Source of the DNA: Ilumatobacteraceae bacterium
GTDB lineage: Bacteria > Actinomycetota > Acidimicrobiia > Acidimicrobiales > Ilumatobacteraceae
Assembly: GCA_044238435.1 (NCBI GenBank)
Contig: JBIIDH010000001.1
Span: forward strand, 5,101-69,100
Length of the DNA: 64,000 nucleotides
Reading direction: 5' to 3'
Shown: positions 2,602-45,844 of the stretch, one piece after another
Numbering within the stretch: the stretch's first letter is position 1
Layout: the number at the start of each line of letters is the position of its first letter
Translations under genes and position numbers: made by a program
Notes under the pieces: model-generated
What the model saw: the letters and a program-made list of their open reading frames with translations, nothing else
Databases searched by the model: none
Told to the model about the DNA's origin: nothing

Positions 2602-3092
2602 GCCACGGCCCCCAGTCGGTCGGGTACTTCATGGAACGCCGAGCCCGACACGATGAGCAGGGTGCGGTCGGCCTCCATCACCAGCTTGATGGCCAGGCCG
2701 CACACCATGCCCTGGGCCAGCGCCGGCCGGGCGGTGGGCAGCGGCCACTCGAGCTTGTGGGTCAGTGCCGTCAGCTGTGCCGCATCGAGCCAGGCGCCGC
2801 GGAACATGGCCTCGGGTTCGATGATGGCGTGCGGATCGGCGGCGGCCACGGCAGCGGCGTCGTCGACCGTGGCGTCGATGACCAACGCGTCGTCGGGGGC
2901 GACGCGCACCATGATGGCGCCGGCCGGCCAGGAGGCTGCGTCGATGGCAGCGGGATTGGCGGTGATGCGCACAGCCATGAGGGTGGTGAAGCGCATCGGT
3001 TCGAGTGCGTCAGAGGCGGGCACGGGCACCCTCCGGGTCGTAGAACGGGGTGGGAGCGACGGTGGCGGTGCGACCGTCGATGAACACGGCAT
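2598..3092 (-). CDS. soxG: sarcosine oxidase gamma subunit (start uncertain; alternative Met at 2996)
   Basis: A small ORF (133 to 164 aa) wedged between soxA and soxB, translationally coupled to soxB. Size and position fit SoxG. I could not recognise a sequence motif. Confidence 0.55.
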   Translation of the reverse strand: MPCSSTVAPPPSLPPRSTTRRVPVPASDALEPMRFTTLMAVRITANPAAIDAASWPAGAIMVRVAPDDALVIDATVDDAAAVAAADPHAIIEPEAMFRGAWLDAAQLTALTHKLEWPLPTARPALAQGMVCGLAIKLVMEADRTLLIVSGSAFHEVPDRLGAVA

Positions 3093-9130: not shown

Positions 9131-9168
9131 CGCTGGAGGTCAGATGGAGGTGAGTGGAGCCGGCAGCG

Positions 9169-11075: not shown

Positions 11076-11879
11076 ATGCCCAGCACCCTTGCGTCGGTCG
11101 TCGATCTCGAGTCCTATCCGCTCGATCGGGTCGGGTCGGATGACTGGATCGCACTCGTCGAACGGTGTCGCGCCGAGCTGATCGACCGGGGCATGTTCGA
11201 GTTGCCGGGCTTCCTGCGCGCCGATGTGCTGGCCGACATCACCGCCCGACTGCTGCCACGGATGGCGACCGAGTCGTGGGAGCAGCGACGGATGCACAAC
11301 ATCTACTTCCTCGACCACGTCGAGGGTCTGGCGCCCGACCATCCGGCCCTGCACCGCATCCTCACCGTGAACCACACCCTGTGCGCCGACCAGCTGCGCG
11401 ACACGGCGCTCACCGAGTTGTACGAGTGGGAGCCGTTCCGTCAGTTCATCGCCGCCACCGTGGGCATGGACGAGTTGTACCTGATGGACGACACCCTGGC
11501 CCGCGTGAACGTGCTCAGTTATCGCCCCGGCGAGGCGCTGAACTGGCACTTCGACCGATCGGTGTTCACCACCACGTTGCTGCTGCAGGCCGCCGAGCAC
11601 GACGGCATCTTCGAGTACCGCCGCGAGCTGCGCACCGACACCGACCCCAACTACGAGGGTGTGGGCCACGTCGTGGCGGGCACCGACCCCGACGTCATCC
11701 GCTGCGCGGTGCAGCCCGGGGCGCTCAACGTGTTCTTCGGCAAGAACACGGCCCACCGGGTCACCACCGTGGAGGGTTCGCTCGAGCGGATGATCGCCGT
11801 GTTCTCGTTCTACGACCGGCCCGGTGTGGTGTTCACCGACAGCGAGAACCTCGGCTTCTACGGTCGCACTGCACCGTGA
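11076..11879 (+). CDS. putative Fe(II)/2-oxoglutarate-dependent oxygenase (small PhyH/IDO-like)
   Basis: 267 aa from MPSTLASVVDLESY. It has a candidate HxD…H facial triad (NWHFDRS … NTAHRVTTV). It is divergent from the SBP operon and immediately upstream of the Rieske oxygenase. Family assignment is tentative. Confidence 0.5.
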   Translation: MPSTLASVVDLESYPLDRVGSDDWIALVERCRAELIDRGMFELPGFLRADVLADITARLLPRMATESWEQRRMHNIYFLDHVEGLAPDHPALHRILTVNHTLCADQLRDTALTELYEWEPFRQFIAATVGMDELYLMDDTLARVNVLSYRPGEALNWHFDRSVFTTTLLLQAAEHDGIFEYRRELRTDTDPNYEGVGHVVAGTDPDVIRCAVQPGALNVFFGKNTAHRVTTVEGSLERMIAVFSFYDRPGVVFTDSENLGFYGRTAP

Positions 11880-13021
11880 ACCCGACGCAGCCCGCCGGAG
11901 CGCTGGCCGCCGTGAGGCGTGCCCTCGTGGCGGCCGAGCAGCAGGGCTACGACGACGCCTGGTCGCTGCCGCACGAGGCCTACACCGATACCGACCTCCT
12001 GGCCGTCGAGCAGTTGGAACTGTTCGGCCAGGAGTGGGTGTGCATCGGTCGGGGCGACGAGATCGCCCACGTGGGCGACACGATGCCGTTCCAGCTCTGC
12101 GACGAGCCGCTCGTCGCAGTGCGCGGCGACGACGGTCGGGTTCGTGTGCTGTCGAACGTGTGCCGTCACCGCGGTGCCATCGTCGTGCCCGAACGCAGCC
12201 AGGGGTCGCATCTGCTGTGCCCCTACCACCACTGGTCGTACGACCTCGACGGGGCGCTGGCCCGCGCCCCGCGCCTCGACGAGCACACTGCGTTCGAGCC
12301 AGCCGCCTGCCGCCTGCCGGAGGTGGCCTGCGAGGAGTGGCTCGGGTTCCTGTTCGTGTCGCTGGCCGACCGACCAGCGCCCCTGGCGCCCCGTCTGGCC
12401 GGGCTCGAAGCGCTCGTCGGTAACTACCACCTCGAACAGATGACCACCCGCTTCGTGGCCGACGAGGTGTGGCCCACCAACTGGAAGTGCTTCGTCGAGA
12501 ACTTCATGGAGGGCTACCACCTCACCCCGCTGCACCGAACCACTCTGCACCCGGTGAACCCCACCCGACTGTGCCGGCACTACGAACCCGGCGACGCCTA
12601 TTTCGGCTATCACGCCGGGTTCTCGCCCGATCTGCCGCGCAGCGAGCGCGGCCATCCAGACCTGTCGCCCGCAGAGGTCGACAACTGCGTGATGTTCGCC
12701 ATCCCGCCCGGCCTGGTGTCGGGGTGCGCGGGCGACTACAGCTCGTTCATCTGCATCCAGCCCGAGAGCGTCGACCGGGTGCGGTTGAAGATGGGGCTGC
12801 AGTTCTTCGGCGAGCACTGGACCGACGAACTGGTCGAGCACGCCGCGGTGCTGTTCCAGGAGACGAACGCCGAGGACCGCGTGGTGCTCGAGGGCATCAC
12901 CCGGGCCTATCGGTCACGGCACCATCGGCCGGGGCCACTCGCCCCGGCCGCGTTCGAAGGACCGATCCACGACTTCCACCGGTACCTGGCCAGGCGGCTG
13001 GTACCGGCGCTGGGCGCCTGA
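11876..13021 (+). CDS. Rieske non-heme iron oxygenase alpha subunit, GbcA/Stc2/CntA-like (betaine N-demethylase type)
   Basis: The GTG start overlaps the upstream stop (GTGA). N-terminus LPHEAYTDTDLLAVEQLELFGQEWVCIGRGDE is typical of the family. The Rieske motif is CRHRG…x17…CPYHHW, followed by a C-terminal catalytic domain. The ORF-track N-terminal 237 aa are out-of-frame junk. Confidence 0.8.
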   Translation: MNPTQPAGALAAVRRALVAAEQQGYDDAWSLPHEAYTDTDLLAVEQLELFGQEWVCIGRGDEIAHVGDTMPFQLCDEPLVAVRGDDGRVRVLSNVCRHRGAIVVPERSQGSHLLCPYHHWSYDLDGALARAPRLDEHTAFEPAACRLPEVACEEWLGFLFVSLADRPAPLAPRLAGLEALVGNYHLEQMTTRFVADEVWPTNWKCFVENFMEGYHLTPLHRTTLHPVNPTRLCRHYEPGDAYFGYHAGFSPDLPRSERGHPDLSPAEVDNCVMFAIPPGLVSGCAGDYSSFICIQPESVDRVRLKMGLQFFGEHWTDELVEHAAVLFQETNAEDRVVLEGITRAYRSRHHRPGPLAPAAFEGPIHDFHRYLARRLVPALGA

Positions 13022-13029
13022 TCAGGCGC
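13014..13029. other. perfect 16-bp palindrome GCGCCTGATCAGGCGC containing both stop codons of the convergent Rieske and DMGO genes
   Basis: Seen in the sequence. The genes abut with a zero-length spacer (TGA/TCA). Confidence 0.3.
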
Positions 13030-15481
13030 GCATCCGCAGGCCCTCGGGGTCGAGCACCGGCTCGTGCTGCAGCGTCGCCGGGCGACGACGGCCCATGATC
13101 TCGATCTCGAAGCCCGATTCGGCCGTAGCGATCTCGGTGGGGACGTAGCCGAGGGCCAGCGACACCGCCGAGTAGTGGGCGTAGCCGCCACTGGTGATCC
13201 AGCCGACCACCTCGCCGTTGTGCCACACCGGCTCGTCGCCGATCACGTCGGCGGGGGCATCGGGGTCGACCTCGACACGGAACATGACGAGCTTGCGCTT
13301 CGGGCCGCCGGCGGCGATCTCGGCCTCGACGGCTGCACGTCCGATGAACTCGTGGTCGAACTTCAGCGAACGGTCCATGCCGGCCTCGAGCGGCGTGTAG
13401 ATGGGCCGGTACTCGCGGTACCAGGTGCCGAAGTTCTTCTCGAGACGCATCGTGATGAGCGCTCGGAAGCCGAACAGGCGCATGTCGAACTCCTGGCCGG
13501 CCTCCCAGATGAGGTCGAACAGGTAGCGCTGGTACTCGGGCTCCATCCAGATCTCGTAGCCGAGATCGCCCGAGTAGGTCATCCGGCTCAGCCACACCGG
13601 CGCCATGCCGAGGTTCACCTTGCGGAACGCCATGAACGGGAAGTCCTTCGTGGCGAGCGAGGTGTCGGTGAGCTTCTGGAGCACATCGCGCGACAGCGGA
13701 CCAGCCACGGTGAGGCCCACCATCGACAGACGGAGGTTCTCGAAGCGGATGGGGCTGCCTTCGGGCAGGTGCGAGAGGAACCACCGCGGGTGGTGCACCT
13801 CGGCGGCCTGCGAGCCGAACAGGAAGAACTCGTCGTCGCCGATGCGGCTGACCGAGAACTCGCCCTCGATACGACCCTGCGGGTTCAGCATCGCAGTGAG
13901 GTTGGTGCGGCCGATCTTCGGCAGGCTGTTGGTGAACAGACCCTGCAGCCACTCGGCTGCGCCGGGGCCACTCACCTTGTACTTGGCGAAGTTCGAGGCC
14001 TCGCTGAAGCCCACCCGCTCGCGCACCGCACGGCTCTCCTCGGCCACCACGTCGAACGCGTTCGAACGCAGGAAGGTGATGTTCTCGACCGGCTCGAGGC
14101 CCGGCTTCTGGAACCACAGCGGGTGCTCGAGACCCATCGCCGCGCCCCACACCGCATTGTGCGCGGTGAGACGGTCGTAGATGGGGGTGGTGAGCAGCGG
14201 ACGTGCCGCCGGCAGTTCCTCGTTCGGGAAGGTGATGCGGAAGCGCCGCGAGTAGTTCTCGCGCACTTTCGAGTTGGTGTATGCGAGGGTGGCGAAGTCG
14301 CCGTAGCGGGCCACGTCCATGCCCCAGATGTCGGCACCCGGGTCGCCGTTCACCATCCACTCGGCGAGGCTGAGGCCCACGCCACCGCCCTGCGACAGAC
14401 CGGCCATCACGGCGCACGCCGACCACATGCCGCGCATGCCCTTGATGGGGCCCACCAGCGGGTTGCCGTCGGGGCTGAACGTGAACGGCCCGTTCACGAA
14501 CCGCTGGATACCGGCGCGGCCGACGGCGGGGAAGTGCTCGAAGGCCCGCTCGAGCTCGGGCGAGATGCGGTCGAGGTCGTGGGGGAGCAGCTGCGAGACG
14601 AAGTCCCACGGGGTCTGCTTGGCCGACCACACCCGGTTCTCCTGCTCGTAGGTGCCGAGCAGGATGCTCTGGCCCTCCTGGCGGGCGTAGATCTCGCCGG
14701 CGAAGTCGATCATGTGGGGCAGTTCGCGGCCGTGCGTCTGGTTGTACTCGATCACCTCGGGCATCGGCTCGGTCATCAGGTAGTGGTGCTCCATCGCCAG
14801 CACCGGCAGCTCCAAGCCGCACATCCGGCCCACTTCACGGGCCCACAGACCGCCGGCGTTCACGACGTGCTCGGTGTGGATGACACCCTTGTCGTCGCCG
14901 GTGTTCGGGTCGTAGCAGTGCACGTCCCAGGTGCCGTCCTGACGCTGGGTGAGCTTGTTCACCCAGGTGTGCTGGTAGGTCTCGGCGCCGCGGTTGCGGG
15001 CGCAGATGAGGTACGCGTTGGTCACGCCGGTGGGGTCGACGCTGCCCTCGTCCTCGTCGTACATCGCGCCGACGAAGAAGCGCTCCTCGAGCAGCGGGTT
15101 CAGCTCCTTGGCCTCCTTCATCGACATCATCTCGGTCTTCATGCCGAGGTAGCGGCCGCGGGCGTGCGCCATGCGCAGCCAGTCGAGGCGCTCGGGCGTG
15201 TCGGCCAGCTGCAGGCCGCCGGGCAGGTGGATGCCGCAGTTCTGGCCGCTCTCGGCCTCGATCTCGCGGTACAGGTTCACCGTGTACTGCTGCAGGCGGG
15301 CCACGTTGGGGTCGCCGTTCAGCGTGTGCATGCCACCTGCGGCATGCCACGTGCTGCCCGAGGTGTACGTCGCCTTCTCGACGAGAACGACATCGGACCA
15401 GCCGGCCTTGGTGAGGTGGTACAGCACGCTGGCGCCGACCACACCTCCACCGATGACGACGACCTGGGTTGAGGTTTTCAT
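13022..15481 (-). CDS. dimethylglycine oxidase / sarcosine-dimethylglycine dehydrogenase family flavoenzyme (FAD DAO domain fused to GcvT folate-binding domain)
   Basis: 819 aa from MKTSTQVVVIGGGVVGASVLYHL (Rossmann GxGxxG). The C-terminal half is glycine-cleavage-T-like. AGGAG lies 7 nt upstream of the ATG. The 120-aa ORF-track extension is spurious. Confidence 0.85.
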   Translation of the reverse strand: MKTSTQVVVIGGGVVGASVLYHLTKAGWSDVVLVEKATYTSGSTWHAAGGMHTLNGDPNVARLQQYTVNLYREIEAESGQNCGIHLPGGLQLADTPERLDWLRMAHARGRYLGMKTEMMSMKEAKELNPLLEERFFVGAMYDEDEGSVDPTGVTNAYLICARNRGAETYQHTWVNKLTQRQDGTWDVHCYDPNTGDDKGVIHTEHVVNAGGLWAREVGRMCGLELPVLAMEHHYLMTEPMPEVIEYNQTHGRELPHMIDFAGEIYARQEGQSILLGTYEQENRVWSAKQTPWDFVSQLLPHDLDRISPELERAFEHFPAVGRAGIQRFVNGPFTFSPDGNPLVGPIKGMRGMWSACAVMAGLSQGGGVGLSLAEWMVNGDPGADIWGMDVARYGDFATLAYTNSKVRENYSRRFRITFPNEELPAARPLLTTPIYDRLTAHNAVWGAAMGLEHPLWFQKPGLEPVENITFLRSNAFDVVAEESRAVRERVGFSEASNFAKYKVSGPGAAEWLQGLFTNSLPKIGRTNLTAMLNPQGRIEGEFSVSRIGDDEFFLFGSQAAEVHHPRWFLSHLPEGSPIRFENLRLSMVGLTVAGPLSRDVLQKLTDTSLATKDFPFMAFRKVNLGMAPVWLSRMTYSGDLGYEIWMEPEYQRYLFDLIWEAGQEFDMRLFGFRALITMRLEKNFGTWYREYRPIYTPLEAGMDRSLKFDHEFIGRAAVEAEIAAGGPKRKLVMFRVEVDPDAPADVIGDEPVWHNGEVVGWITSGGYAHYSAVSLALGYVPTEIATAESGFEIEIMGRRRPATLQHEPVLDPEGLRMRA

Positions 15482-15539: not shown

Positions 15540-17156
15540 TCAGTAGTCGGTGGCGACGCCGCCCTCGGCGACGCGCCGGGCGAGGAACTCGTCGAGTTCC
15601 TGGCGGCGGTCGGCGGGCATGGCGGGCGGCTCGTAGGCGTCGAGGAACTTGGCGGCGAGCTGCTTGGCCTTGCCGTCGGCGGTGGGCGAGCCGGCTTCCT
15701 CCCAGCTCTCGTAGTTGCGCCAGTCGCTGAGGAACGGTCGATAGAAGGCGTCGCGGAACCGGGCCTGAGTGTGCGCCGTACCGAAGAAGTGGCCACCCGG
15801 CCCGACCTCTTCGATGGTGTCGATGGCGAGCGTGTCGGCATCGACGATGACGGGCTCCATCATCTTGGTGACCATCTGCAACAGGTCGGCGTCGAGCACC
15901 ATCTTCTCGAGGCTCGAGTGGAGGCCACCCTCCATCCAGCCAGCGCCGTGCATCATGAAGTTCACGCCACCCATGACGGCGCCCCACAGCGCGAACACGC
16001 TTTCGTAGGCGGCCTGGGCGTCGAGCGCGTTGGCTGCACAGACGTTCGAGCTGCGGTACGGGATGCCGTAGCGGCGGGCCAACTGGCCGCCGATCATGGC
16101 GGTGCGCACGTACTCGGGGGTGCCGAACGCCGGCGCGCCGCTCTGCATGTCGACGTTCGAGGTGAACCCTCCGTACATCGCCGGCGCGCCAGGGTTGACG
16201 ATCTGCAGGAAGGCGATACCCGCCAGGGCTTCGGCGTTCTGCTGCGCCAGCGCGCCGGCCAGCGTGATGGGAGCCATGGCGCCGGCGAGGGTGAACGGGG
16301 TGACCACGACGGGCTGGTTGTGGAGGGCGAACTCGATCATGCCCTGTGCCATCGGGATGTCGAGACGCAGCGGCGAGTTGGTGTTCACCACGGTGATGAG
16401 TGACGGCTCGCGGTCGATGGTGGCCTGGTCGACACCGCGGGCGATGCGCACCATCTCGATGCAGTCGATGTTGCGCTGGCGACCGAGGCTGTAGCAGTAC
16501 ATGCCCTTGTCGGTCATCGTGAGGATGTCGTGCGAGGCCTCGAGATGGCGTACCGAGTGGTGGATGTCGATCGGTTCCACCGGGTAGCCCGGCACGTAGT
16601 GGATGACGTTCAGCATCTGCGCCAGCTTCAGCAGGTCGCGGAAGCCTTCGCGGTCGCCGGTGCGGCGCACGCCGTTGCGGTCGATGTAGTGCGGGGTGCT
16701 GGCCACCGTGCCGAACGTGAGCCAGCGGCCGCCGATGCGCACGTTGTGGTCGGGGTTCCAGCTGTGCAGGGTGTACTCGCTGGGTGCCGTGGTGATGGCC
16801 GACTCGATCAGTTCACGGGGGAAGCGCACCCGGTGGTTGCTCTCGTCGACATCGGCGCCGGCAGCCTTCATGATGCTGCGCGACTCGGGGCACATGAACT
16901 CCATGCCGATGCGTTCGAGGATGGTGAGCGAGGCCTGGTGGATCGACTCGAGCTCGTCGGCCGACACCACCTCGGTGTGGTTGAGTCGCATCTGCGGCTG
17001 CTTGAAGGGCAACTGCTCGGGCAGCCGGGAACGGGTGCCCTCGGCGCGGTCGCGGCCACGCCGACGAGCGGGAGTTCCGCCGTCTGGTCCGCTGGTGGGG
17101 CCGGTGTCGGAAGCGGTGTCGGTCACGAGATCCGACACTACACCGCCCGACGGCAT
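15540..17156 (-). CDS. MttB-superfamily (trimethylamine methyltransferase family) methyltransferase, non-pyrrolysine type
   Basis: 538 aa, uninterrupted with no in-frame amber. It aligns along its full length with the second copy at 26624..28138 (…[21 protein letters not shown]…[18 protein letters not shown]…[19 protein letters not shown]…GPGGHFF…). AAGGA lies 4 nt upstream. It ends 58 nt upstream of the DMGO-like gene. Confidence 0.85.
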
Positions 17157-17221
17157 TCCTTGTACGGTTGTCTCGCGAATGGCCGAGCCGGCCGCGTGTC
17201 GTGGAGGAGAGGGGCCGAGCC

Positions 17222-18391
17222 GTGAGCACGATCGTCGCCATCGACATCACCCACCACCAACTGGTGCTCGACCCACCGTTCCCGGCGTCGTGGGATCCGC
17301 AGCCCCGCACGCGGTTCCCCGCCACGATCGTGCGGGTCCGCGACAGCGAGGGTCGGGTGGGCGTGGGCTCGGGCGATGCGATGTACGGCTTCGCCGACTA
17401 CGCCCGCTGGTTCCTGGGCGAGGACCCGCTCGATCTCCAGCAGCACGCGGCCTGCCTGGCCAACGTGGGCTTCCATGCCGGTCGCCCGTGGCCGCTCGAC
17501 GTGGCCCTGTGGGATCTCGCCGGTCAGATCCGCGAGCAGCCGGTGTGGTCGATGCTCGGTGGACGATCGCCCCGGCTGCGGGTATACGCCTCCACCGCAG
17601 TGCACAGGCCGGTGGCGGCGATGGTGGAGGTGGCCCGACGACTCGTCGACGAGGGCTTCGACGCGATGAAGGTGCGGTTCGGTCGAGCGTCGCTGGCCGA
17701 CGACCTGGCCGTCGTGCGCGCGGTTCGAGATGCGGTCGGGCTGGCGCTGACCCTCATGGTCGACTGCAACCAGGGGTGGCGCATGCCGTGGGACACCCAG
17801 GCCCCCTGGCATCTCGACCAGGCCACCGAGGTGGCGCTGGCCCTGCAGCGCGAGGGCGTGTACTGGATGGAGGAACCGCTGCACCGCGGCGACTACGGCG
17901 CGATGAGCGAACTGCGGCGGCGGGTGCGCGAGGCGGCCATCGGTGAGGCACCGATGCTGATCGCCGGCGGCGAGATGACACGTGAGCCGTACGAGTTCGA
18001 CGAGTTGCTGCGACGCGATTGCCTCGACGTGTTCCAGCCGGACGTGGTGTGCACGCAGGGGTTCGCTGCACTCGCCTCGCTGGGGCGCCGCGTGGTGGCC
18101 GACGGCAAGGTGTTCACGCCGCACACGTGGGGTAACGGCATCGGGGTGCTGGCCAACCTCCATCTGACGGCCGGGTCGGTGGGCCACGAGGGGTCGCGGT
18201 GGGTGGAGTTCCCGCTCGACCCACCGGAATGGAGTATCGAGCGACGCGACTACCCGCTCGAATCTCCGATCACTGCAGAGCGCGGTGAACAGGGCATGTG
18301 GGTCGAGCTCGGCGAGCGACCCGGTCTCGGCATCGACCTCGACGAACAGCGCCTCGCGGCCACCGCCAGTGCCTCGGCCACCTTCTCCTGA
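17222..18391 (+). CDS. enolase-superfamily enzyme, mandelate racemase/muconate-lactonizing-enzyme subgroup (racemase/epimerase/dehydratase)
   Basis: GTG start [12 protein letters not shown] preceded by GGAGGAGAGGGG. It has N-terminal capping and C-terminal barrel features (…MVDCNQGW…EEP…DV…). It is divergent from the MttB gene. Confidence 0.8.
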
Positions 18392-18417
18392 CCGTCGGCC
18401 TGGTTAGCCTCCACACC

Positions 18418-19584
18418 GTGTCCACCATCGCCAGCATCGTCGCCACCCCGGTCAACGTGCCGATGGTGGCGCCCTACCGGTTCTCGTTCGGCACTCTCGC
18501 CAGCTTCACCACCACCATCGTCGAGGTCACCGACAGTGACGGGGTCACCGGCATCGGCGAGACCCCGCACGGCGACCTCTCGGGCCTGATCTCCTCGATG
18601 GGCGCGCAGCTCGCCGGTTGCTCGGTCGACGACCTGAACGGGTGCGAAGCCCGGTGTGTGGCCCGCACCGGCTTCAGCCTGTGGGACGACTCGGCCAACG
18701 AGCGGCGGGCGTTCGGCGGCATCGAGATGGCGCTGTGGGACCTGCGGGCCAAGCGTGCCGGTGTTCCGCTGGTCGACCTGCTCGGTGGCCGAGTGCGCGA
18801 CAGCGTGGCGTTCACCGAGTACTTCGCGCTGCGCGTGGGCCGTGAGGAGACACCCGTCGACGTGGTGCGCTACTGCGAGCAGATCGCCGCCGATTTCGAC
18901 GCCCGGGTGTTCGAGGGCAAGCTCGGCGTGCTCGACGTGGAGACCGAGATGGCCATGGTGGCCGATCTGGTGCGGGCGCTCGGGCCGGGCCGGGTGCAGC
19001 GCCTCGATGCCAACGGCGTGTACACCGTGCCCACCGCTCGTCAGGTGGTGCGACGGCTCGCCGATCTGGGAGTGGGCTGGCTGGAAGACCCGTGCCGTAC
19101 CCACGACGAGACGGCCCGTCTACGCGCCGACGGGGCGCCGATCTCGTTCAGCACCCACCAGGTCGACCTCGCCCGCGCCGCCCGCGATGGCGTGCCCGAT
19201 GCCTTCTGCATCGACGCCACCGAGATGGGCGGCCTGCGACGCACGCAGGACTTCCTGCGCGCCTGCGCTGCGCTCGGCATCGACTTCTGGTGCTACAGCG
19301 GCGACGCCGGCGTGATGACCGCCGCCTACCTGCACCTCACCGCGGCGGAGGCATCGATGATCCGTCCGCACCAGAGCCTGTTCCGGTTCACCGCCGACGT
19401 GGTCGTCGAGCAGGGTCACTACTCGCCGAGGGGTGGTGTGCTGCCGGTGCCCGAGGCACCCGGCCTCGGTGTCACCATCGATCGGGCGGCCTTGGCTCGG
19501 CTCCATGAACGCTTCCGTGCCGAAGGGTCGATGGCGGCATCCGATGGCGACGGCGGGTACCGCCAGCAGTTCCGTCAGCAGTAG
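18418..19584 (+). CDS. enolase-superfamily enzyme (second tandem paralog)
   Basis: GTG start VSTIASIVATPVNVP, the same VSTI start as its neighbour. It has MR/MLE-like features (…LDANGVYT…EDP…). It lies 27 nt after the first copy. Confidence 0.8.
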   Translation: MSTIASIVATPVNVPMVAPYRFSFGTLASFTTTIVEVTDSDGVTGIGETPHGDLSGLISSMGAQLAGCSVDDLNGCEARCVARTGFSLWDDSANERRAFGGIEMALWDLRAKRAGVPLVDLLGGRVRDSVAFTEYFALRVGREETPVDVVRYCEQIAADFDARVFEGKLGVLDVETEMAMVADLVRALGPGRVQRLDANGVYTVPTARQVVRRLADLGVGWLEDPCRTHDETARLRADGAPISFSTHQVDLARAARDGVPDAFCIDATEMGGLRRTQDFLRACAALGIDFWCYSGDAGVMTAAYLHLTAAEASMIRPHQSLFRFTADVVVEQGHYSPRGGVLPVPEAPGLGVTIDRAALARLHERFRAEGSMAASDGDGGYRQQFRQQ

Positions 19585-19616
19585 CAGCACCCCAGCGCAG
19601 GGGTAGTGTTCCGGCC

Positions 19617-20231
19617 GTGGCGCGGACACCCGATCTCGAGCGTCGGCAGGAACTGCTCGACCGGATCGTCGATCACCTCGCCGAACACGGCCTCGCGCAG
19701 ACGACGTTGCGGCCACTCGCCGCCTCGCTCGGTGTCAGCATCAACCGCCTCGTGCACCATTTCGGTACCAAGGAGGAGCTGCTCGCCACGGCGTTGCGCC
19801 GCGGTGTCGAGCGGCAGAACGAGATCGAGGACGCGTGGATCGAGCGCGACCCGTCGATCTCGATGGCCGACATCTACCGCAAGTGGTGGAAGTGGATGAA
19901 CGCCAAACCGCAGAACCTGGCGCTCGTTCGACTCGGGTACGAGGCGGCTGCACTGAACACCACCGTCACCGGTCTCCCCGGCGACCTGCGCGCCGACCAG
20001 TTGGCGGTGTGGCGGCACTTCGTGGAGGAGAAGCTGCACCGCGAGGGCCTGCCCATGCCGCTCGCCCAGAGCGAGGCATCCATCCAGAAGGCCATCTTCA
20101 CCGGGTTGATCATCGACCTCGTGGCGTCGGGCGATCGCAAGCGACTCGGTGCAGCACTCGAGGTGTCGCTGCAGCGGCTCGAGGCGCTCATCGCCGCGGC
20201 CCGCGCCTCCACCGAACTGTCCGACACATAG
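19617..20231 (+). CDS. TetR-family transcriptional regulator
   Basis: 204 aa with an N-terminal HTH (LAEHGLAQTTLRPLAASLGVSINRLVHHFGTKEELL). GTG start. Confidence 0.8.
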   Translation: MARTPDLERRQELLDRIVDHLAEHGLAQTTLRPLAASLGVSINRLVHHFGTKEELLATALRRGVERQNEIEDAWIERDPSISMADIYRKWWKWMNAKPQNLALVRLGYEAAALNTTVTGLPGDLRADQLAVWRHFVEEKLHREGLPMPLAQSEASIQKAIFTGLIIDLVASGDRKRLGAALEVSLQRLEALIAAARASTELSDT

Positions 20232-20846: not shown

Positions 20847-22094
20847 TCAGTCGATGGTGCCGTAGGCGCCCTGATCGCCTGAGGCGGCGGCTGCGGTCAC
20901 CTCGTCGATCGACGCGCCGAGATCGGCGAGGAATGACTCCACCTTGTCGGCGTGCACGGCATTCACGGTGAGGTGCAGCGACGGGGGAGGGCCCTGCCGG
21001 TCGACGTACCAGCCGCGCCGCCACAGCGCGTCGGCGACCGCGTACACATCGAGTGCCGATGGGTCGGCAGCGCCGAACGACAGCAGCATCGCATCGGGTT
21101 CGGCGCGCAGCACCAGTTCGGGCATCGACCGCACGGCGGCAGCGATCTGCTCGGTGGCGCGTCGGGCGTCGGCCGTGAGGCGGAGGTACCCCTCGTCGCC
21201 CAGGTGGTGCATCACCGCCCACGCCGCGGCCATCGGACCGCCACCCTTGGTGCCCAGCACACCCGACGAGCCGTACATGCCGCCGAGCCAGTTGTCGGTG
21301 ACGAAGGTCTGGTAGGCACGCAGTCGCTTCGAGCGGTGCATGATCACCGACGCACCCTTCGCGGTGTAGCCGAACTTGTGCAGGTCGACCGAGATGCTGG
21401 TCACCCCCGGCACCGTGAAGTTCCACGGGGCGATGTCGTAGCCCAGCCGGGCGAGATACGTCAGCGTCACGCCGCCCATGCAGGCGTCGACGTGGCAGTT
21501 GATGTCGCGCTCGGCGGCCAGGGCGGCGATGTCGGCGATGGGGTCGACCACACCCTGCGGGTACTGGGGTGCCGAGCCCACCACCAGCACGGTGTCGTCG
21601 TCGATGGCGTCGGCCATCGCGTCTGCATCGGCTCGCCAGTCGTCGCGCACGGCAACCCGTCGGCTCTCGAGGCCGAAGTAGTAGCACCCTTTCTCGAACG
21701 CCGCGTGGGCACTGGTGGGCAGCACCACGTTCGGCCGGGCAACGCCTCGCTCGGCGCGGCCCCGCTCGCGTGCCGCCTTCACCGCCATGAGAATGCTCTC
21801 GGTGCCGCCACTCGTCATGAATCCGGCACCATCGGGGCCCGCCTGCAGCCAGTCGGCCACGATTCCCACCACCTCGGCCTGGATGGTGCGCAGGCTGGGG
21901 AACGCATCGGTGTTGAGGGCGTTGTCGGTGCTGAAGCGGCGGTGCGCCTCGTCGGCGACGGCCGACACCTCGGGCCCCGCGTAGTAGGCGAGCGTGAACG
22001 CCCGCCCGTCGCGCCACCGGACGTCGTGCTCCTTCAGCGCGTCGAGCCGGGCGAGCACCTGATCGGCAGGAACGCCGGAGGAGGGGAGTGTCAT
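20847..22094 (-). CDS. PLP-dependent group II decarboxylase / sphingosine-1-phosphate-lyase-like enzyme (start uncertain)
   Basis: 415 aa with a PLP-lysine context SISVDLHKFGYTAKGASV and a …MTSGGTESILMAV… motif. Its ATG overlaps the divergent aminotransferase ATG. Confidence 0.7.
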   Translation of the reverse strand: MTLPSSGVPADQVLARLDALKEHDVRWRDGRAFTLAYYAGPEVSAVADEAHRRFSTDNALNTDAFPSLRTIQAEVVGIVADWLQAGPDGAGFMTSGGTESILMAVKAARERGRAERGVARPNVVLPTSAHAAFEKGCYYFGLESRRVAVRDDWRADADAMADAIDDDTVLVVGSAPQYPQGVVDPIADIAALAAERDINCHVDACMGGVTLTYLARLGYDIAPWNFTVPGVTSISVDLHKFGYTAKGASVIMHRSKRLRAYQTFVTDNWLGGMYGSSGVLGTKGGGPMAAAWAVMHHLGDEGYLRLTADARRATEQIAAAVRSMPELVLRAEPDAMLLSFGAADPSALDVYAVADALWRRGWYVDRQGPPPSLHLTVNAVHADKVESFLADLGASIDEVTAAAASGDQGAYGTID

Positions 22095-23301
22095 GACGGC
22101 AACGTACCCGAGCAGCCCACTCGGGCCTGCCTACGCTCGGTTGGTGCGCACCGACGGCTTCCTCCTGAACCCCGACATCACGTTCCTGAACCACGGTTCG
22201 TTCGGAGCGTGCCCGGAGCCGGTGTTCGCGGCGTACCAGCGCCTGCAGCTCGAGATGGAACGCCAGCCGGTCGAGTGGTTGGCCCGTCGCTCCGACGACC
22301 TGCTGGGCGCTGCCCGGGCGCGCCTGGCCGCCTACCTCGGTGCGCAGGCCGACGACCTGGTGTACGTGCCCAACCCCACCACGGCGGTGAACATCGTGGC
22401 GCGCAGCCTGCGCCTGCAGCCGGGCGACGAGGTGCTCACCACCGACCACGAGTACGGTGCGATGAACCGCACCTGGCGGGTGATCTGCGAGCAGGCCGGG
22501 GCGCGCTACGTGCAGGTGCCCGTCCCCGTACCGGTCTCCACGCACGCCGACTTCGTCGAGCGACTGTGGGCCCAGGTCACCGAGCGCACCAAGGTGATCT
22601 TCCTCAGCCACATCACCAGCGACACCGCGCTCGTGTTCCCGGCCGACGAGATCTGCCGCCGGGCCAGGGCCGCCGGCATCTTCACCATCGTCGACGGGGC
22701 GCACGTGCCGGCCCACATCCCGCTGCACCTCGGCACCCTCGACGCCGACATCTACACCGGCGCCTGCCACAAGTGGCTGTGCGCCCCGAAGGGCTCGGCG
22801 TTCCTGTGGGCCCGCCGCGACGTGCAGCCGATGCTGCGTCCGCTGGTGGTGAGTTGGGGATGGGAGCCCGCCGTGCCCGGTCCCTCGCCGTTCATCGACC
22901 ATCACCAGTGGCAGGGCACCCGCGACCTGAGCGCGTTCCTGGCCACACCTGCGGCCATCGACTACGAGGAAGCCAACGACTGGGACGGTGTGCGCGAGCG
23001 CTGCCACGCCGCTGCCGTCGAGGCGAGCGCACTGCTGCACGGCGTCACCGGGTGCGAACCGTTCAGCCCCGAGCACACCGGCGACCAGCGTTCGCCCATC
23101 TGGTACGGGCAGATGGTGGCCATCCGCCTGCCCGACCACGTCGATGTGGCCGACCTGAAGCGGCGCCTGTACGACGACCACCGCATCGAGGTGCCCGTCT
23201 ACCGCTGGGCCGACATCCCCATCCTGCGCGTGTCGATCCAGATGTACAACACCCCCGACGACGTCGACCGCCTCGCCGCCGCCCTCCGCACGCTCCTCTG
23301 A
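22093..23301 (+). CDS. class V aminotransferase-fold PLP-dependent enzyme (cysteine desulfurase / isopenicillin-N-epimerase-like)
   Basis: 402 aa, …FLNHGSFGACPE…, with PLP Lys in GACHKWLCAPKGSAF. A strong SD GGAGGAGGGGAG lies 6 nt upstream. Confidence 0.75.
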   Translation: MTATYPSSPLGPAYARLVRTDGFLLNPDITFLNHGSFGACPEPVFAAYQRLQLEMERQPVEWLARRSDDLLGAARARLAAYLGAQADDLVYVPNPTTAVNIVARSLRLQPGDEVLTTDHEYGAMNRTWRVICEQAGARYVQVPVPVPVSTHADFVERLWAQVTERTKVIFLSHITSDTALVFPADEICRRARAAGIFTIVDGAHVPAHIPLHLGTLDADIYTGACHKWLCAPKGSAFLWARRDVQPMLRPLVVSWGWEPAVPGPSPFIDHHQWQGTRDLSAFLATPAAIDYEEANDWDGVRERCHAAAVEASALLHGVTGCEPFSPEHTGDQRSPIWYGQMVAIRLPDHVDVADLKRRLYDDHRIEVPVYRWADIPILRVSIQMYNTPDDVDRLAAALRTLL

Positions 23302-23369
23302 CCCGCCACCACCCGCCGCGATGAGCACCCTGCGCAGCAGGTGCGCATGTTGCTCATCGCGGTGGCGGG
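23302..23369. other. large imperfect hairpin (9-bp plus 10-bp stem with a 7-nt bulge, 23-nt loop containing two TGCGCA palindromes) between the aminotransferase and amidohydrolase genes
   Basis: The arms cccgccacc/ggtggcggg and gcgatgagca/tgctcatcgc are seen directly. The element starts 1 nt after the aminotransferase stop. It is a candidate intrinsic terminator or attenuator, or a REP-like element. Confidence 0.4.
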
Positions 23370-23392
23370 GGAGGGCGGCTAACGTCGGCGCG

Positions 23393-24265
23393 ATGGGGAT
23401 GCCGACCGACATCGGGGTGATCGACCTCATGCTGGGCATCCCCGAACCGGGCATGCGCGCCCACTGGTACGACTTCTTGAAGCCGAACCTGCGCGACACC
23501 GAGAGCCAGTCGATGGCGATGCCGGCGCAGTACCTGTTCAAGGACATCCCCGACGACCCGAGCGATGCCGACATGATCGCCTGGACCGTCGACCAGATGA
23601 ACGGCCACGGCATCGCCAAGGCGCTCATCGGCGTCGACCTCGCCGGCGGCATCCAGAACGACGCCATCGTCCGACACCCCGACCGTTTTTTCGGCTGCCT
23701 GCACGTCGATCCCAACGGCGGTATGGCCGTGGTGCGCGCCATCCAGGAGGCGCACGACCGGCTCGGCATCAAGGGCGTGTCGCTGTTCCCCTCGGGCTGC
23801 AACCCGCCGGTGCCCATCGACGACAAGCGCATGTACCCGGTGTACGCGAAGTGCGCCGAACTCGGCATCGCCGTGCTGTGCTGCGTGGGCGTGCCCGGGC
23901 CGCGGCTGCCGATGGCGGCCCAGCACGTCGAACGCATCGACGAGGTGTGCTGGTACTTCCCCGAGCTCACCTTCGTGATGCGCCACGGCGGCGAACCCTG
24001 GGTCGACCTCGCCGTGAAGCTGCTGCTGAAGTGGCCGAACCTCTACTACAGCACGTCGGCGTTCACGCCCCGGCGCTACCCGCAGGAGATCATCGACTTC
24101 GCCAACACCCGGGGGAGCGACAAGGTGATGTACGCCGGCTACTTCCCGATGGGCCTCAGCCTCGGCCGCATCTTCCGCGAACTGCCGAACGTGCCGCTGC
24201 GCGACGAGGTGTGGCCGAAGTTCCTGCGCGACAACGCCGTGCGCGTGTTCGGACTCGACCGATGA
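23393..24265 (+). CDS. amidohydrolase-2 / TIM-barrel metal-dependent hydrolase family protein (ACMSD-like)
   Basis: Start at MGMPTDIGVIDLMLGIPE. It has a C-terminal …DKVMYAGYFPMG… motif. Its stop overlaps the next ATG (ATGA). An alternative upstream ATG at 23321 lies inside a large hairpin. Confidence 0.6.
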   Translation: MGMPTDIGVIDLMLGIPEPGMRAHWYDFLKPNLRDTESQSMAMPAQYLFKDIPDDPSDADMIAWTVDQMNGHGIAKALIGVDLAGGIQNDAIVRHPDRFFGCLHVDPNGGMAVVRAIQEAHDRLGIKGVSLFPSGCNPPVPIDDKRMYPVYAKCAELGIAVLCCVGVPGPRLPMAAQHVERIDEVCWYFPELTFVMRHGGEPWVDLAVKLLLKWPNLYYSTSAFTPRRYPQEIIDFANTRGSDKVMYAGYFPMGLSLGRIFRELPNVPLRDEVWPKFLRDNAVRVFGLDR

Positions 24266-25239
24266 GTGCACCCCTGCAGCAGCGACCCACCAGCGAACGC
24301 TGGCCGTGGCCCATCCCGTTCGGCTGGTTCGCCCTCGGCTGGTCGCACGAACTGACCGAGCAACAGGTGCTGCCGCGGCACGTGTTCGGCGCCGACACCG
24401 TGCTGTGGCGCGACGCCGACGGAACCGCCCACCTGCACGACGCCTACTGCCCCCACCTCGGCGCGCACCTCGGCGTGGGCGGCAGCGTCGACGGATGCAC
24501 CATCGTGTGCCCGTTCCACGCCTGGGCGTTCGATGCCGAAGGCCGCAACACGATCATCCCCTACAGCGACCGCACCAACGCCAAGGCCCGCCTGCGCACC
24601 TACCCGGTGGTCGAGCGCAACGGGCTGATCATGGCCTGGTACCACCCGCACGAGGCCGAGCCGCAGTGGGAGATCCCCGAGGTGCCCGAGTTCGGCACCA
24701 CAGGTGTGGGGGAGGAGTTCAGCGACCCGTTCACCCGCCAGTTCGAGATCGCCACGGCATGGCAGGAGATGGCCGAGAACGGCGTCGACTCGGCCCACTT
24801 CCGCTACGTGCACGGTACTGCCGAGGTGCCCGTGCTCGAGAGCTACGAGACCGAGGGCCATCGCTCGCGGATGCGGTCGAAGCAGTTCTTCGTCACGCCT
24901 CGGGGCACCACCGAGGGCCGCATCGACAGCGACGGGTGGGGCCCGGGCTTCTCGGTGGTGCGTTTCAGCGGCATCGTCGAGACCCTGCTGCTGGGCTGTG
25001 CCACCCCGGTGGAACGCGACCGGTGCGAGATGCGGTTCACGTTCTGCGTGCGTCGTTTCGCCGACGACCGGGTCACGAGCAGTGTGGGCGAGGCCTTCGT
25101 GAACGAGGTGTCGCGGCAACTGCTGGAAGACAAGCCGATCTGGGAGCACAAGACCTACATCGACCGGCCAGCACTCGCCGACACCGACGGACCCTTCGCC
25201 GCCTTCCGCCGCTGGGCCAGCCGGTTCTACGCGGCCTGA
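24262..25239 (+). CDS. Rieske [2Fe-2S] non-heme iron oxygenase, KshA/phthalate-family-like, alpha-only
   Basis: 325 aa from MSAPLQQ. Rieske motif CPHLGAHLG…x17…CPFHAW. Mononuclear-iron motif ENGVDSAHFRYVHG (D-x2-H-x4-H). Confidence 0.8.
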   Translation: MSAPLQQRPTSERWPWPIPFGWFALGWSHELTEQQVLPRHVFGADTVLWRDADGTAHLHDAYCPHLGAHLGVGGSVDGCTIVCPFHAWAFDAEGRNTIIPYSDRTNAKARLRTYPVVERNGLIMAWYHPHEAEPQWEIPEVPEFGTTGVGEEFSDPFTRQFEIATAWQEMAENGVDSAHFRYVHGTAEVPVLESYETEGHRSRMRSKQFFVTPRGTTEGRIDSDGWGPGFSVVRFSGIVETLLLGCATPVERDRCEMRFTFCVRRFADDRVTSSVGEAFVNEVSRQLLEDKPIWEHKTYIDRPALADTDGPFAAFRRWASRFYAA

Positions 25240-25260
25240 GCAGCGCGGATCACCCGTCGA

Positions 25261-26091
25261 ATGGCCATCCTCCTCGCCGCCGTCGCCGCCGTGCTGCTGG
25301 GCGCCTCCGACTTCTTCGCCGCCCGCTCGGCGCGCCATGCCGCCAGCCTCACGGTCACCCGCACGGTGGTGCTCACCTCGGCCGTGCTGTCGCCGCTGCT
25401 GGTGCTGGTGGTCGACTCGCGGTGGATCGGCCGCGACATGCTGCTGGGCGCGCTGGCCGGGCTGTCGATGATCACCGGGCTGATGCTGCTCTACCACGGC
25501 TACAAGGTGTCGCGCATCGGCATCGTTGCTCCCATCTCGTCGGTGCTGCTGGCTGCCGTACCGGTCGTCACCGATCTGGTGCGCGGCGAGCGCCCCAGCA
25601 CCCTCGGCACGGTCGGCATCGCCATCGGCCTCGTCGCCGTGGTGCTGACCAGCTATCAGCCGGGCGGCGAGGGCAGCGTGCGCCAGGGCGCCATCCTCGG
25701 GGTCACCTCGGGCATCGGGTTCGGCATCGCCTTCACGCTGATGGGCGAGGTGAGCGCTGAGGCCGGCCTGGCGCCCGTGTTCGCTCAACGTGGCACCGGA
25801 CTGGTGCTGCTGTGCGTGATCGCCCTGTTCCGGGCCGAGCCGTTCCTGGTGCAGCACCCGCTCGGCCGACGCATGGCGATGATCAGCGGCGTGTTCGGCG
25901 TGGTGGCCATCGGCTCGCTGCAGTTGGCGTTCCGCGAGGGGGCATCGGGCCCGGTGTCGGTGGCCGGCTCGCAGTTCGCCACCGTCGCCGTCATCCTCTC
26001 GGTGCTGTTCAACCGCGAGCGGATGCGCTGGTGGCAGGGCATCGGGGTGGGCGCCACCGCCGTGGGTGTCGCCCTGATGGCCCTCGGCTGA
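25261..26091 (+). CDS. EamA/DMT-family transporter
   Basis: 276 aa with about 10 predicted TM helices and two-repeat EamA topology. Confidence 0.7.
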   Translation: MAILLAAVAAVLLGASDFFAARSARHAASLTVTRTVVLTSAVLSPLLVLVVDSRWIGRDMLLGALAGLSMITGLMLLYHGYKVSRIGIVAPISSVLLAAVPVVTDLVRGERPSTLGTVGIAIGLVAVVLTSYQPGGEGSVRQGAILGVTSGIGFGIAFTLMGEVSAEAGLAPVFAQRGTGLVLLCVIALFRAEPFLVQHPLGRRMAMISGVFGVVAIGSLQLAFREGASGPVSVAGSQFATVAVILSVLFNRERMRWWQGIGVGATAVGVALMALG

Positions 26092-26116
26092 CGGCCCCAC
26101 ACCGGTCGGCGCCGAT

Positions 26117-26158
26117 CTTGTTCGAGTTTCCGTTGTGTACGACCGAAACTCGAACAAG
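26117..26158. promoter_or_regulatory. perfect 14-bp inverted repeat CTTGTTCGAGTTTC…GAAACTCGAACAAG separated by 14 nt; candidate operator or structured element
   Basis: Seen directly in the sequence. It is a locally AT-richer site between EamA and the FKBP/MttB2 genes with no downstream T-tract. Confidence 0.4.
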
Positions 26159-26235
26159 TTCGGGTGTGGCTACCGCCGCAAGCCAGCGTCGACCCGCCAG
26201 GGACTGGCCGACCGGACAGCGGCTAGGGTCGAGAC

Positions 26236-26613
26236 ATGAGCGATCGCACCAAGCCTTCCATCACCATTCCCGCCGGCGACCCGCCCGCCGACCTGCTGAT
26301 CGACGACGAGATCGTCGGCGACGGCGACGAGGCCACCATCGGCAAGCGGGTCACCGTGCACTACGCCGGTGTGGCGTGGAGCACAGGCAGCGAGTTCGAC
26401 GCCAGCTGGAACCGCGGCGAGACGTTCAGCTTCCGCCTCGGCGCCCGCGAAGTGATCGAGGGCTGGGACCGCGGCGTGAAGGGGATGAAGGTGGGTGGCC
26501 GTCGGCGCCTCACCATCCCGGCCGACCTGGGCTACGGCAGCAGGGGAGCGGGCGGGGTGATCAAGGGCGGCGAGACCCTCGTGTTCGTCGTCGACCTCGT
26601 CTCGGTGCGCTGA
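26236..26613 (+). CDS. FKBP-type peptidyl-prolyl cis-trans isomerase
   Basis: 125 aa. …VTVHYAGVAWSTGSEFDASWNRGETFSFRLGAREVIEGWDRGVKGMKVGGRRRLTIPADLGYG… is the canonical FKBP fold signature. Confidence 0.9.
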   Translation: MSDRTKPSITIPAGDPPADLLIDDEIVGDGDEATIGKRVTVHYAGVAWSTGSEFDASWNRGETFSFRLGAREVIEGWDRGVKGMKVGGRRRLTIPADLGYGSRGAGGVIKGGETLVFVVDLVSVR

Positions 26614-26623
26614 GCAACCGTCG

Positions 26624-34057: not shown

Positions 34058-34165
34058 CGCCGCGGAGTGTAGTCGCAGGCCGCGGAGTGTGTTCGTTCCG
34101 GTCCGCCTTCCACGGGAACGGTGACCAAGTGGAACAGTTCTTCCAGCCTGTGTAGTGTCTGGAAC

Positions 34166-35155: not shown

Positions 35156-35211
35156 CACCCGGGCACCGAACCCGCAGGGGGCGCTGAACCAGCCGAGGCG
35201 CAGGGCAGACT

Positions 35212-45781: not shown

Positions 45782-45844
45782 AACGTCGAACTCTAGGCGG
45801 CGCGGCGACGAATCCCCGGGATAGGAGTCGTCTCACCGACCAGG

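Follow-up and report, generated by a model that had tools for sequence, protein, structure and literature searches.

Two distantly related enolase-superfamily proteins with non-canonical catalytic residues in a putative methylated-amine gene cluster of an Ilumatobacteraceae bacterium

One enolase-superfamily enzyme whose gene is located among those for betaine N-demethylases is HpbD, a 4-hydroxyproline betaine 2-epimerase and proline betaine racemase of the muconate lactonizing enzyme (MLE) subgroup (PDB 4H2H and 4J1O; PMC3950512). HpbD coordinates its metal by D194, E219 and D242, uses the lysines K164 on strand β2 and K266 on β6 as bases and binds its substrate via Trp312 and Asp293, and the published proline betaine (Pro-B) pathway consists of a racemase, a Rieske demethylase and a flavin demethylase (PMC3950512). 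Here, we compare this and other described systems with two adjacent genes, coding for proteins termed Eno1 and Eno2, in a stretch of 64,000 nt from an Ilumatobacteraceae bacterium (contig JBIIDH010000001.1 of assembly GCA_044238435.1), which is referred to as the window in its full length. We consider it somewhat probable (about 0.55) that Eno1 and Eno2 are anciently diverged enzymes encoded in a conserved cluster for the uptake and breakdown of an α-amino or imino acid that is N-methylated and probably quaternary, and that they represent neither a pair of HpbD enzymes nor a heteromer. The two genes are located as follows.

17222..18391, plus strand: Eno1, GTG start, 389 aa, Pfam MR_MLE_C (3.9e-42)
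18418..19584, plus strand: Eno2, GTG start, 388 aa, Pfam MR_MLE_N and MR_MLE_C (MR_MLE_C 1.8e-33)

The first-pass annotation of this DNA had assigned both proteins to the enolase superfamily, which is borne out by their matches to Pfam MR_MLE_C, and had noted that both genes open with GTG-Val-Ser-Thr-Ile, as is seen in both translations. Of its two lengths of 389 aa, the one for Eno1 is correct, but Eno2 has 388 aa, and the spacer between the genes measures 26 nt (18392..18417) instead of 27 nt. Both start codons are backed by the N-termini of homologs, which read MSxIVAIEI for Eno1 and MSTIASI for Eno2. A recent duplication or gene conversion behind the common V-S-T-I start was ruled out by the low identity of the two proteins (25% by BLASTP), which fall into separate subgroups, by the lack of any DNA repeat joining the genes beyond matches of 14–21 nt at conserved motifs, and by the codons used, which are AGC versus TCC for serine, two boxes that are not interconvertible, and ACG versus ACC for threonine. 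Because M-S-x-I is kept independently within the Eno1 and the Eno2 homologs and because of these serine codons, the shared VSTI reflects a homologous first β-strand plus chance. From this comparison, Eno1 and Eno2 are ancient paralogs and no product of a recent tandem duplication. The homologs of both were mainly found in metagenome-assembled genomes (MAGs) of Ilumatobacteraceae and other Acidimicrobiia; the G+C content of the window is 66–72%.

Comparison with HpbD was based on a four-way alignment including the MLE-type protein EnoX of the HpbD/c3LHypD family, on the published residue list and on column statistics. Neither window protein shows the HpbD constellation of D/E/D ligands and two lysines. 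Eno2 has K168 on β2 but D266 on β6, combined with the ligands D197/E223/H247, a Tyr293 and a GlucD-like fold, whereas Eno1 has R152 on β2 and D274 on β6, the ligands D181/E217/E251 and an MR-type His-Asp dyad. Among the PDB sequences, the HpbD structures 4h2h (3.7e-22) and 4e8g (1.9e-19) ranked behind about 15 other entries for Eno2, no HpbD entry occurred in the Foldseek top 50 of this protein, and none is listed among the best 60 PDB matches for Eno1. Membership of either protein in the HpbD family was rejected because both lack the β6 lysine and the D/E/D ligand set. Dipeptide epimerases and o-succinylbenzoate synthases (OSBS) were rejected as well because the combination of K-x-K, β6 lysine and D/E/D is missing and the NCBIfam AEE and OSBS models match far below their cutoffs. 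The HpbD-type epimerases proposed in the first-pass annotation are thus not supported by the catalytic residues, and the active site of a dipeptide epimerase or OSBS, which it had named as the contrary outcome, is also absent from both proteins.

Eno1 resembles the mandelate racemase (MR) subgroup, which comprises MR, TalrD/GalrD, the galactarolactone cycloisomerase 4HPN and the 3,6-anhydro-D-galactonate cycloisomerase 5OLC. Its sequence neighbours in the PDB belong to this subgroup (5olc, 3ozm, 3ddm and 4ggb), and the best Foldseek matches of its AlphaFold 2 (AF2) model, which has a mean confidence score (pLDDT) of 93 and places the catalytic columns at the C-terminal ends of the barrel strands, were 2ovl, 4hpn, 3ozm, 5olc, TalrD and MR, with 1MDL also among the fold matches. 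The residues K150-x-R152, D181, E217/E218, E251, D274, H301 and E329 are invariant in 120 homologs, a set which is dominated by sequences of at least 68% identity; the species-level genome scan described below was run with Eno2. Eno1 therefore shares with the MR subgroup the fold, the D/E/E metal ligands D181/E217/E251, the dyad H301-D274 and the β8 glutamate E329, but it deviates in the K-x-K motif, which reads K150-V-R152 in all 120 homologs. In HMMER alignments to 5olc and 3ozm, R152 aligns with the second, catalytic lysine of this motif, making Eno1 the natural equivalent of the crippled K166R mutant of MR. Two other differences to the MR subgroup are a Trp-rich insertion of 10 residues (WRMPWD...W) after the first metal ligand D181, which is invariant in the family, and a gene context of methylamine instead of sugar-acid or mandelate genes. 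A Thermoleophilia homolog of 41% identity keeps the K-x-R motif (AMKIRF) and part of the insertion.

Judged by these residues, Eno1 is an MR-type enzyme without the β2 base which retains His301-Asp274. With only the His-Asp dyad remaining and the β2 lysine replaced by Arg152, Eno1 is more probably a one-base β-eliminase (a lyase or dehydratase) than a racemase, as comparison with dehydratases of the MR subgroup and with the K166R mutant of MR suggests.

Eno2 is closest in fold to structural-genomics proteins of the glucarate dehydratase (GlucD) subgroup, namely 3VFC (MSMEG_6132), 4IT1, 3VC5/4DHG (Tbis_1083), 4DYE/2OQH and 3VA8, and to E. coli GlucD. Its nearest PDB sequences were 3vc5, 2oqh, 4dye and 3va8, and Foldseek with the AF2 model (pLDDT 94) ranked 3vfc, 4it1, 4dhg, 4dye, 3va8 and 2oqh first and placed E. 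coli GlucD and GlucDRP after them, at TMq values of 0.84–0.89, with a TM of about 0.86–0.89 for the closest folds. The strands of the model end exactly at K168, D197, E223, H247, D266 and Y293. Like these proteins, Eno2 has the β2 lysine, the β3 aspartate, the β4 glutamate and a β6 aspartate, but at an identity of 20–29% it carries E166-G-K168 instead of K-x-K, H247 instead of the asparagine serving as third ligand, and Y293 instead of the β7 histidine. It reaches only 52.9 bits with the NCBIfam glucarate dehydratase model, the cutoff of which is 828.7. The residues E166-G-K168, D197, E223, H247, D266, Y293 and D296 are invariant in 121 homologs; D266 is retained in the window protein, but most members of the wider clade have Asn or Gly in its place. 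The 94 nearest representatives of 50% identity clusters mostly have K-x-K, Asn and His in the matching columns, and a β6 lysine in none of them (0/94).

The resulting signature E-K-D-E-H-(D/N/G/H)-(Y/H/R)-(D/E/N) was found at every genome locus with at least 33% identity to Eno2 and at no control locus. It is carried by Actinomycetota, Alpha- and Betaproteobacteria, Desulfobacterota, Oscillospiraceae and Chloroflexia, including the genera Mesorhizobium, Roseibium, Leisingera, Marivivens, Paraburkholderia and Novosphingobium. Eno2 belongs to a clade of its own, GlucD-like in fold, in which K168 and the metal site are kept and His247 acts as third ligand. With K168 on one face and the β7 Tyr or His on the other, two residues could potentially transfer protons, and either an inversion at C2 or an anti-elimination is therefore possible. 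The glutamate at position 166, which replaces the charge-neutralising first lysine of KxK, would fit a substrate in which the carboxylate has a cationic nitrogen as its neighbour. This lysine is likewise missing from the HpbD/c3LHypD family, which has Q/S-x-K, consistent with amino-acid-type substrates. The histidine ligand suggests a metal preference other than the usual Mg. Both Eno1 and Eno2 fall outside the curated functional families because all their NCBIfam equivalog matches are far below the cutoffs.

The genes adjoining the pair upstream are given below; as the first-pass annotation had stated, Eno1 is divergent from the MttB-DMGO operon.

15540..17156, minus strand: MttB-family (non-pyrrolysine) methyltransferase, 538 aa, Pfam MTTB (7.8e-193), divergent from Eno1
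13022..15481, minus strand: DMGO-like flavoprotein, 819 aa, Pfam DAO, FAO_M, GCV_T and GCV_T_C, downstream of MttB
11876..13021, plus strand: GbcA-like Rieske oxygenase alpha subunit, 381 aa, Pfam Rieske and Ring_hydroxyl_A
11076..11879, plus strand: HalD/BesD-like Fe(II)/2-oxoglutarate oxygenase, 267 aa, HxD motif, 4-nt overlap with the following Rieske gene
5254..10956, minus strand: ATP-binding cassette (ABC) importer with SBP_bac_5 at 9169..10956, a permease at 8183..9130 and a fused double ATPase (Pfam), a second permease being presumed

The closest structures to the MttB protein are 4yyc (1e-110) and the glycine betaine methyltransferase 2qne/9yce (7e-87). The start of the DMGO-like protein was set by an ATG and by homologs of 819 aa at two related loci (L088 and L090; loci are given by our running numbers). 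The Rieske protein is of the quaternary-amine monooxygenase type, with GbcA as best NCBIfam match (7.7e-42), below cutoff. With three putative N-demethylases (MttB, the GbcA-like Rieske oxygenase and the DMGO-like flavoprotein) and an ABC importer, the neighbourhood is as expected for an HpbD-like context. In contrast to the HpbD system, MttB is present besides the Rieske enzyme as first demethylase, and the second one is DMGO-like instead of HpbA.

The tandem of Eno1 and Eno2 was found again in at least seven other loci, at 68–92% identity and with spacings that vary between a 4-nt overlap and 36 nt (L001, L002, L009, L013, L024, L088, L090), and is therefore more than a chance arrangement. 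The module ABC(SBP_bac_5) - DMGO - MttB / Eno1 - Eno2 is conserved within Ilumatobacteraceae (L002, L009, L013, L024, L088 and L090), and the divergent orientation of MttB and Eno1 in the same six loci and L003. Each gene is also found without the other. Eno1 stands beside MttB-DMGO without Eno2 in L003–L006, and in L003 no trace of Eno2 is left in the gap of 950 nt behind the lone Eno1. Eno2 has no Eno1 next to it in L010, L011, L012 and L014. The heteromer considered in the first-pass annotation is unlikely, at least as an obligate assembly, because of these separate occurrences. In most Ilumatobacteraceae (L001, L002, L009, L013 and L024), the genes immediately behind Eno2 encode a membrane FA_desaturase and a small PhnD/SsuA-like binding protein, and they recur beside an Eno2 homolog on alphaproteobacterial plasmids of Terrarubrum (L094) and Fuscovulum (L091); in the subclade of the window, a TetR gene occupies their position, and no FA_desaturase or PhnD-like homologs were detected in the 64-kb window by tblastn.

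Beyond this group, a species-level genome scan with Eno2 revealed an MttB gene within 10 kb of the Eno2-clade gene in 21 of 53 loci, compared to none of 22 control loci containing only canonical relatives at 23–32% identity (Fisher p = 1.8e-4, uncorrected for phylogeny). The distance was below 600 nt in 9 of the 53. Operons of MttB, Eno2 and DMGO occur in Roseibium, Leisingera, Marivivens, Paracoccus and Mesorhizobium, as exemplified by plasmids of Paracoccus sp. TOH (LysR / MttB - hydrolase - Eno2 homolog - DMGO-like) and Mesorhizobium sp. 113-3-3 (LysR / MttB - Eno2 homolog - DMGO-like). Other plasmids feature putative imine reductases of the Ldh_2 or OCD families, namely those of Fuscovulum ytuae (SBP - Eno2 homolog - Ldh_2 - PhnD-like), Terrarubrum flagellatum (ABC - Ldh_2 - Eno2 homolog - OCD - PhnD-like - FA desaturase - B12-binding - DUF1638) and Phyllobacterium zundukense (GntR - EnoX - Eno2 homolog - ABC - Ldh_2), and such genes also flank Eno2 homologs in L026, L045, L054 and L069. 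Rieske genes are located near Eno2 homologs in L022 and L026. Homologs of the ABC importer lie beside Eno2 homologs in L010, in the Mesorhizobium loci and on the Phyllobacterium and Terrarubrum plasmids, with 41–60% identity between the Mesorhizobium and window transporters. The Eno2 clade is thus robustly tied to N-demethylases for quaternary or tertiary amines, ketimine reductases and a Dpp/Opp-type importer across phyla. Of the betaine role suggested in the first-pass annotation, the linkage of Eno2 to betaine-type N-demethylases (21/53 versus 0/22) stands, but membership in the HpbD family does not. In a Desulfobacula MAG, an anaerobe (L053), we observed the order MttB, xylose-isomerase-like TIM barrel protein, Eno2 homolog, MttB, ferredoxin, aldehyde:ferredoxin oxidoreductase, DAO and a DUF1638-hydantoinase fusion, with a DMGO-like gene and a sigma-54 activator upstream.

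In Mesorhizobium and Phyllobacterium, the partner of the Eno2 homolog is EnoX, an MLE-type protein with Q-x-K, D/E/D ligands and a β6 lysine, which is 26–30% identical to Eno1 and Eno2. Its best PDB match is 4mgg (2.8e-87), and it scores 369 bits, below the cutoff of 500, with the NCBIfam model for cis-3-hydroxy-L-proline dehydratase (NF043002; c3LHyp dehydratase). EnoX shows the same tandem-enolase layout and the same type of ABC transporter as the window, but Eno1 is no ortholog of it. Two loci of uncultured Actinomycetes (L015 and L050) contain a c3LHyp-dehydratase-like enolase a few kb from the Eno2 homolog, with 53–55% identity to the Mesorhizobium EnoX, and the pairing of MLE-type and Eno2-type enolases therefore recurs in a second phylum. 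To judge from these gene contents, the recurrent Ldh_2/OCD imine reductases and the c3LHyp-dehydratase-like partner point to proline-like imino acids.

In the pathway we propose, the substrate would be imported by the SBP_bac_5 ABC transporter and lose a first N-methyl group by the cobalamin-dependent MttB and/or the GbcA-like Rieske oxygenase, followed by a second N-demethylation by the DMGO-like flavoprotein. Eno2 may abstract the α-proton from the betaine or its demethylated product, leading either to inversion at C2, functionally like HpbD, or to elimination of a β-hydroxyl group yielding a ketimine, and Eno1 would catalyse a one-base β-elimination. As in HpbD, the likely task of the pair would then be α-proton chemistry on an N-methylated imino acid. 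Our best guess for the substrate is a betaine of the proline, hydroxyproline or pipecolate type, with a carnitine-like β-hydroxy betaine as an alternative for Eno1. The betaine idea remains reasonable for Eno2 despite its failed assignment to HpbD because the linkage parallels the published Pro-B pathway. A more far-reaching version, which we regard as tentative, takes Eno2 as a new subgroup with a GlucD-like fold accompanying MttB in aerobes and anaerobes of at least four phyla, Eno1 as a new MR-type family with a natural "K166R" exchange, and both as parts of a new branch of betaine catabolism. Eno2, with its Glu-x-Lys motif, His metal ligand and Lys/Tyr acid-base pair, would be a dedicated stereo-inverting or eliminating partner of MttB-type quaternary-amine demethylases, and Eno1 would bind the cation by its Trp-rich insertion and eliminate a β-substituent from a carnitine-like or 3-hydroxy-imino-acid betaine.

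Several observations weigh against our interpretation of the pair as enzymes for an N-methylated amino or imino acid. The nearest structures of Eno1 are acid-sugar dehydratases and cycloisomerases, and the first lysine of KxK retained in this protein would suit an anionic, non-amine substrate. The Eno2 clade lacks a nearby MttB gene in 32 of the 53 loci and sometimes occurs in unrelated surroundings (L012), and the Fisher test ignores phylogenetic non-independence. The MttB proteins beside distant Eno2 homologs are only 27–43% identical to that of the window, and their substrates may therefore differ. Finally, no Ldh_2 or OCD, corrinoid protein, Pterin_bind or RACo homolog was found in the 64-kb window by tblastn.

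Among the rival explanations, ordinary acid-sugar dehydratases or cycloisomerases merely lying beside methylamine genes appear unlikely. The best NCBIfam and PDB similarities are indeed to arabinonate, talarate, galactonate and glucarate dehydratases and to cycloisomerases, Eno2 homologs carry the JGI label "glucarate dehydratase", and Eno1 keeps the first KxK lysine and the His-Asp dyad. However, none of the NCBIfam matches comes near a curated cutoff, Eno2 is devoid of the KxK, Asn ligand and His of GlucD, genes of a sugar-acid pathway are not adjacent, MttB, DMGO-like and Rieske genes repeatedly accompany the Eno2 clade in different phyla but not its canonical relatives, and Eno1 is divergently coupled to MttB even without Eno2. 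We find it still less credible that either or both of the two are orthologs or close family members of HpbD, acting on proline betaine as racemase or on 4-hydroxyproline betaine as 2-epimerase and providing two specificities as suggested initially. The betaine-type cluster of MttB, Rieske and DMGO-like genes is analogous to hpbD-hpbB1C1-hpbA, Eno2 does match 4h2h and 4e8g, and the imine reductases and c3LHypD-like partners suggest proline-like substrates. This is outweighed by the residues, which are wrong in both proteins (His247 and Asp266 in Eno2; Arg152, Glu251 and Asp274-His301 in Eno1), by the better scores of some 15 other PDB entries and the absence of HpbD from the Foldseek top 50, by the lack of a β6 lysine even in the 94 cluster representatives, and by the existence of the HpbD/c3LHypD-like EnoX as a separate partner of Eno2 homologs in Mesorhizobium.

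An obligate heteromer of one catalytic and one degenerate subunit, as in GlucD/GlucDRP, is very doubtful. It would agree with the tight spacing of the genes in at least seven loci and with the loss of one canonical catalytic residue from each protein, and in 4GYP, itself among the fold matches of Eno2, two paralogs of the superfamily encoded side by side do assemble into a heterotetramer. Yet GlucD and GlucDRP are close paralogs of one subgroup with one degenerate site, whereas Eno1 and Eno2 are 25% identical members of two subgroups with complete and invariant metal sites. Each is also encoded alone elsewhere, Eno2 even as the sole enolase-type gene beside MttB in many phyla, and the partner in Mesorhizobium is a different, MLE-type protein. 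The least probable alternative in our estimate is that Eno2 is an inactive pseudoenzyme with a binding or regulatory function, having lost the β7 His and the canonical third ligand. The exchanges of KxK to ExK, Asn/Asp to His247 and His to Tyr293 relative to its nearest structural relatives speak for it, but K168, D197, E223, H247 and Y293 are invariant in the 121 members and the signature extends across five phyla, unlike a decaying site. Moreover, Tyr and His interchange at position 293, as expected of an acid/base position, and the Eno2-type gene is often the only one of the enolase type in MttB operons.

A TetR gene follows 32 nt downstream of Eno2, as had been reported in the first-pass annotation, and a short intergenic region separates Eno1 from MttB.

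19617..20231, plus strand: TetR-family regulator, 204 aa, Pfam TetR_N (6.8e-09, residues 14–57)
17157..17221, no strand assigned: divergent intergenic region between MttB and Eno1, 65 bp

An identity of the regulator as BetI was rejected, as only the helix-turn-helix region matches, with 31.8 bits versus a cutoff of 201. It follows Eno2 only in L088, L089 and L090, relatives at 88–97% identity, and is replaced elsewhere; it is probably a local, recently recruited and lineage-specific repressor. No terminator-like site was detected between Eno2 and TetR, though the promoter and terminator scan was uninformative, and TetR is probably co-transcribed with Eno1 and Eno2; a control of the gene set by TetR is plausible. 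The divergent region contains a conserved, non-palindromic block, TTCCTTGTACGGTTGTCT(S)GCGAATG, which emerged when L088 and L090 were aligned to it, and a Shine-Dalgarno-like GGAGGAG run ahead of Eno1. No inverted repeat or palindrome and, in the equally uninformative scan, no sigma-70-like match was found within it, and a TetR operator palindrome was seen neither there nor in 19585..19616, the only structure noted being a short hairpin which is not conserved in L088/L089.

Some further genes of the window deserve mention. The HalD/BesD-like gene scores only weakly (Pfam HalD 0.0031, 2OG-FeII_Oxy_3 0.03), and its 55% identical homolog in Mesorhizobium (HalD 9.7e-11) is located two genes, across a GntR reading frame, upstream of the pair of EnoX and the Eno2 homolog. 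Upstream of the ABC transporter lie genes for a SoxB-like protein (1393..2628, minus strand; DAO) and a SoxA-like protein (3010..5214, minus strand; Fer2_4, SO_alpha_A3, GCV_T), which are consistent with further N-methyl oxidation steps. A second methylamine-type block at 20847..28138, the order of which is conserved in L088 and L090, consists of genes for a pyridoxal-phosphate (PLP) decarboxylase (minus strand), a class V aminotransferase, Amidohydro_2, a Rieske/KshA_C protein (about 24262..25239), an EamA transporter, FKBP and a second MttB (26624..28138). For the two MttB genes of the window, tblastn revealed no cobalamin partner within the 64 kb; a corrinoid protein, a Pterin_bind methyltransferase and RACo accompany MttB in L003/L004. 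A VioC/GntD-like Fe/2-oxoglutarate amino-acid β-hydroxylase of the TauD family (34073..35152, plus strand) is followed by a GntG-like PLP aldolase (35188..36276, plus strand), a hydroxylate-then-retro-aldol pair that recalls trimethyllysine hydroxylase and HTML aldolase. At 44189..45832 (minus strand), a ThyX-like protein of 548 aa with two Thy1 stretches is encoded, about double the usual length.

In the literature library that was searched, we found no paper linking MttB with the enolase superfamily, mandelate racemase or muconate lactonizing enzyme; the matches for MttB and racemase concern lactate racemase, and a paper on marine glycine betaine does not mention these genes. Because no curated model names either family and no linking paper was found, we rate both as undescribed. 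Our best reading is that of two new families within the enolase superfamily which act in a methylated-amine pathway and whose catalytic residues deviate from the canonical sets. The source annotations are generic or, in the case of "glucarate dehydratase" and "chloromuconate cycloisomerase", very likely wrong. Outside the residue patterns of MR, MLE and GlucD as compared here are the conserved His ligand with a Lys/Tyr pair in Eno2 and the natural exchange of Lys to Arg at the position of the MR base in Eno1.

MttB-family genes are abundant in aerobic marine, freshwater and soil bacteria, and only a handful of their substrates are known. A conserved partner abstracting an α-proton would imply that many MttB enzymes act on chiral amino-acid betaines, and a racemase or dehydratase assay would offer a practical handle for finding MttB substrates. 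In the more far-reaching version given above, both families would define a hitherto unrecognised branch in the catabolism of osmolytes and betaines by the abundant aquatic Acidimicrobiia.

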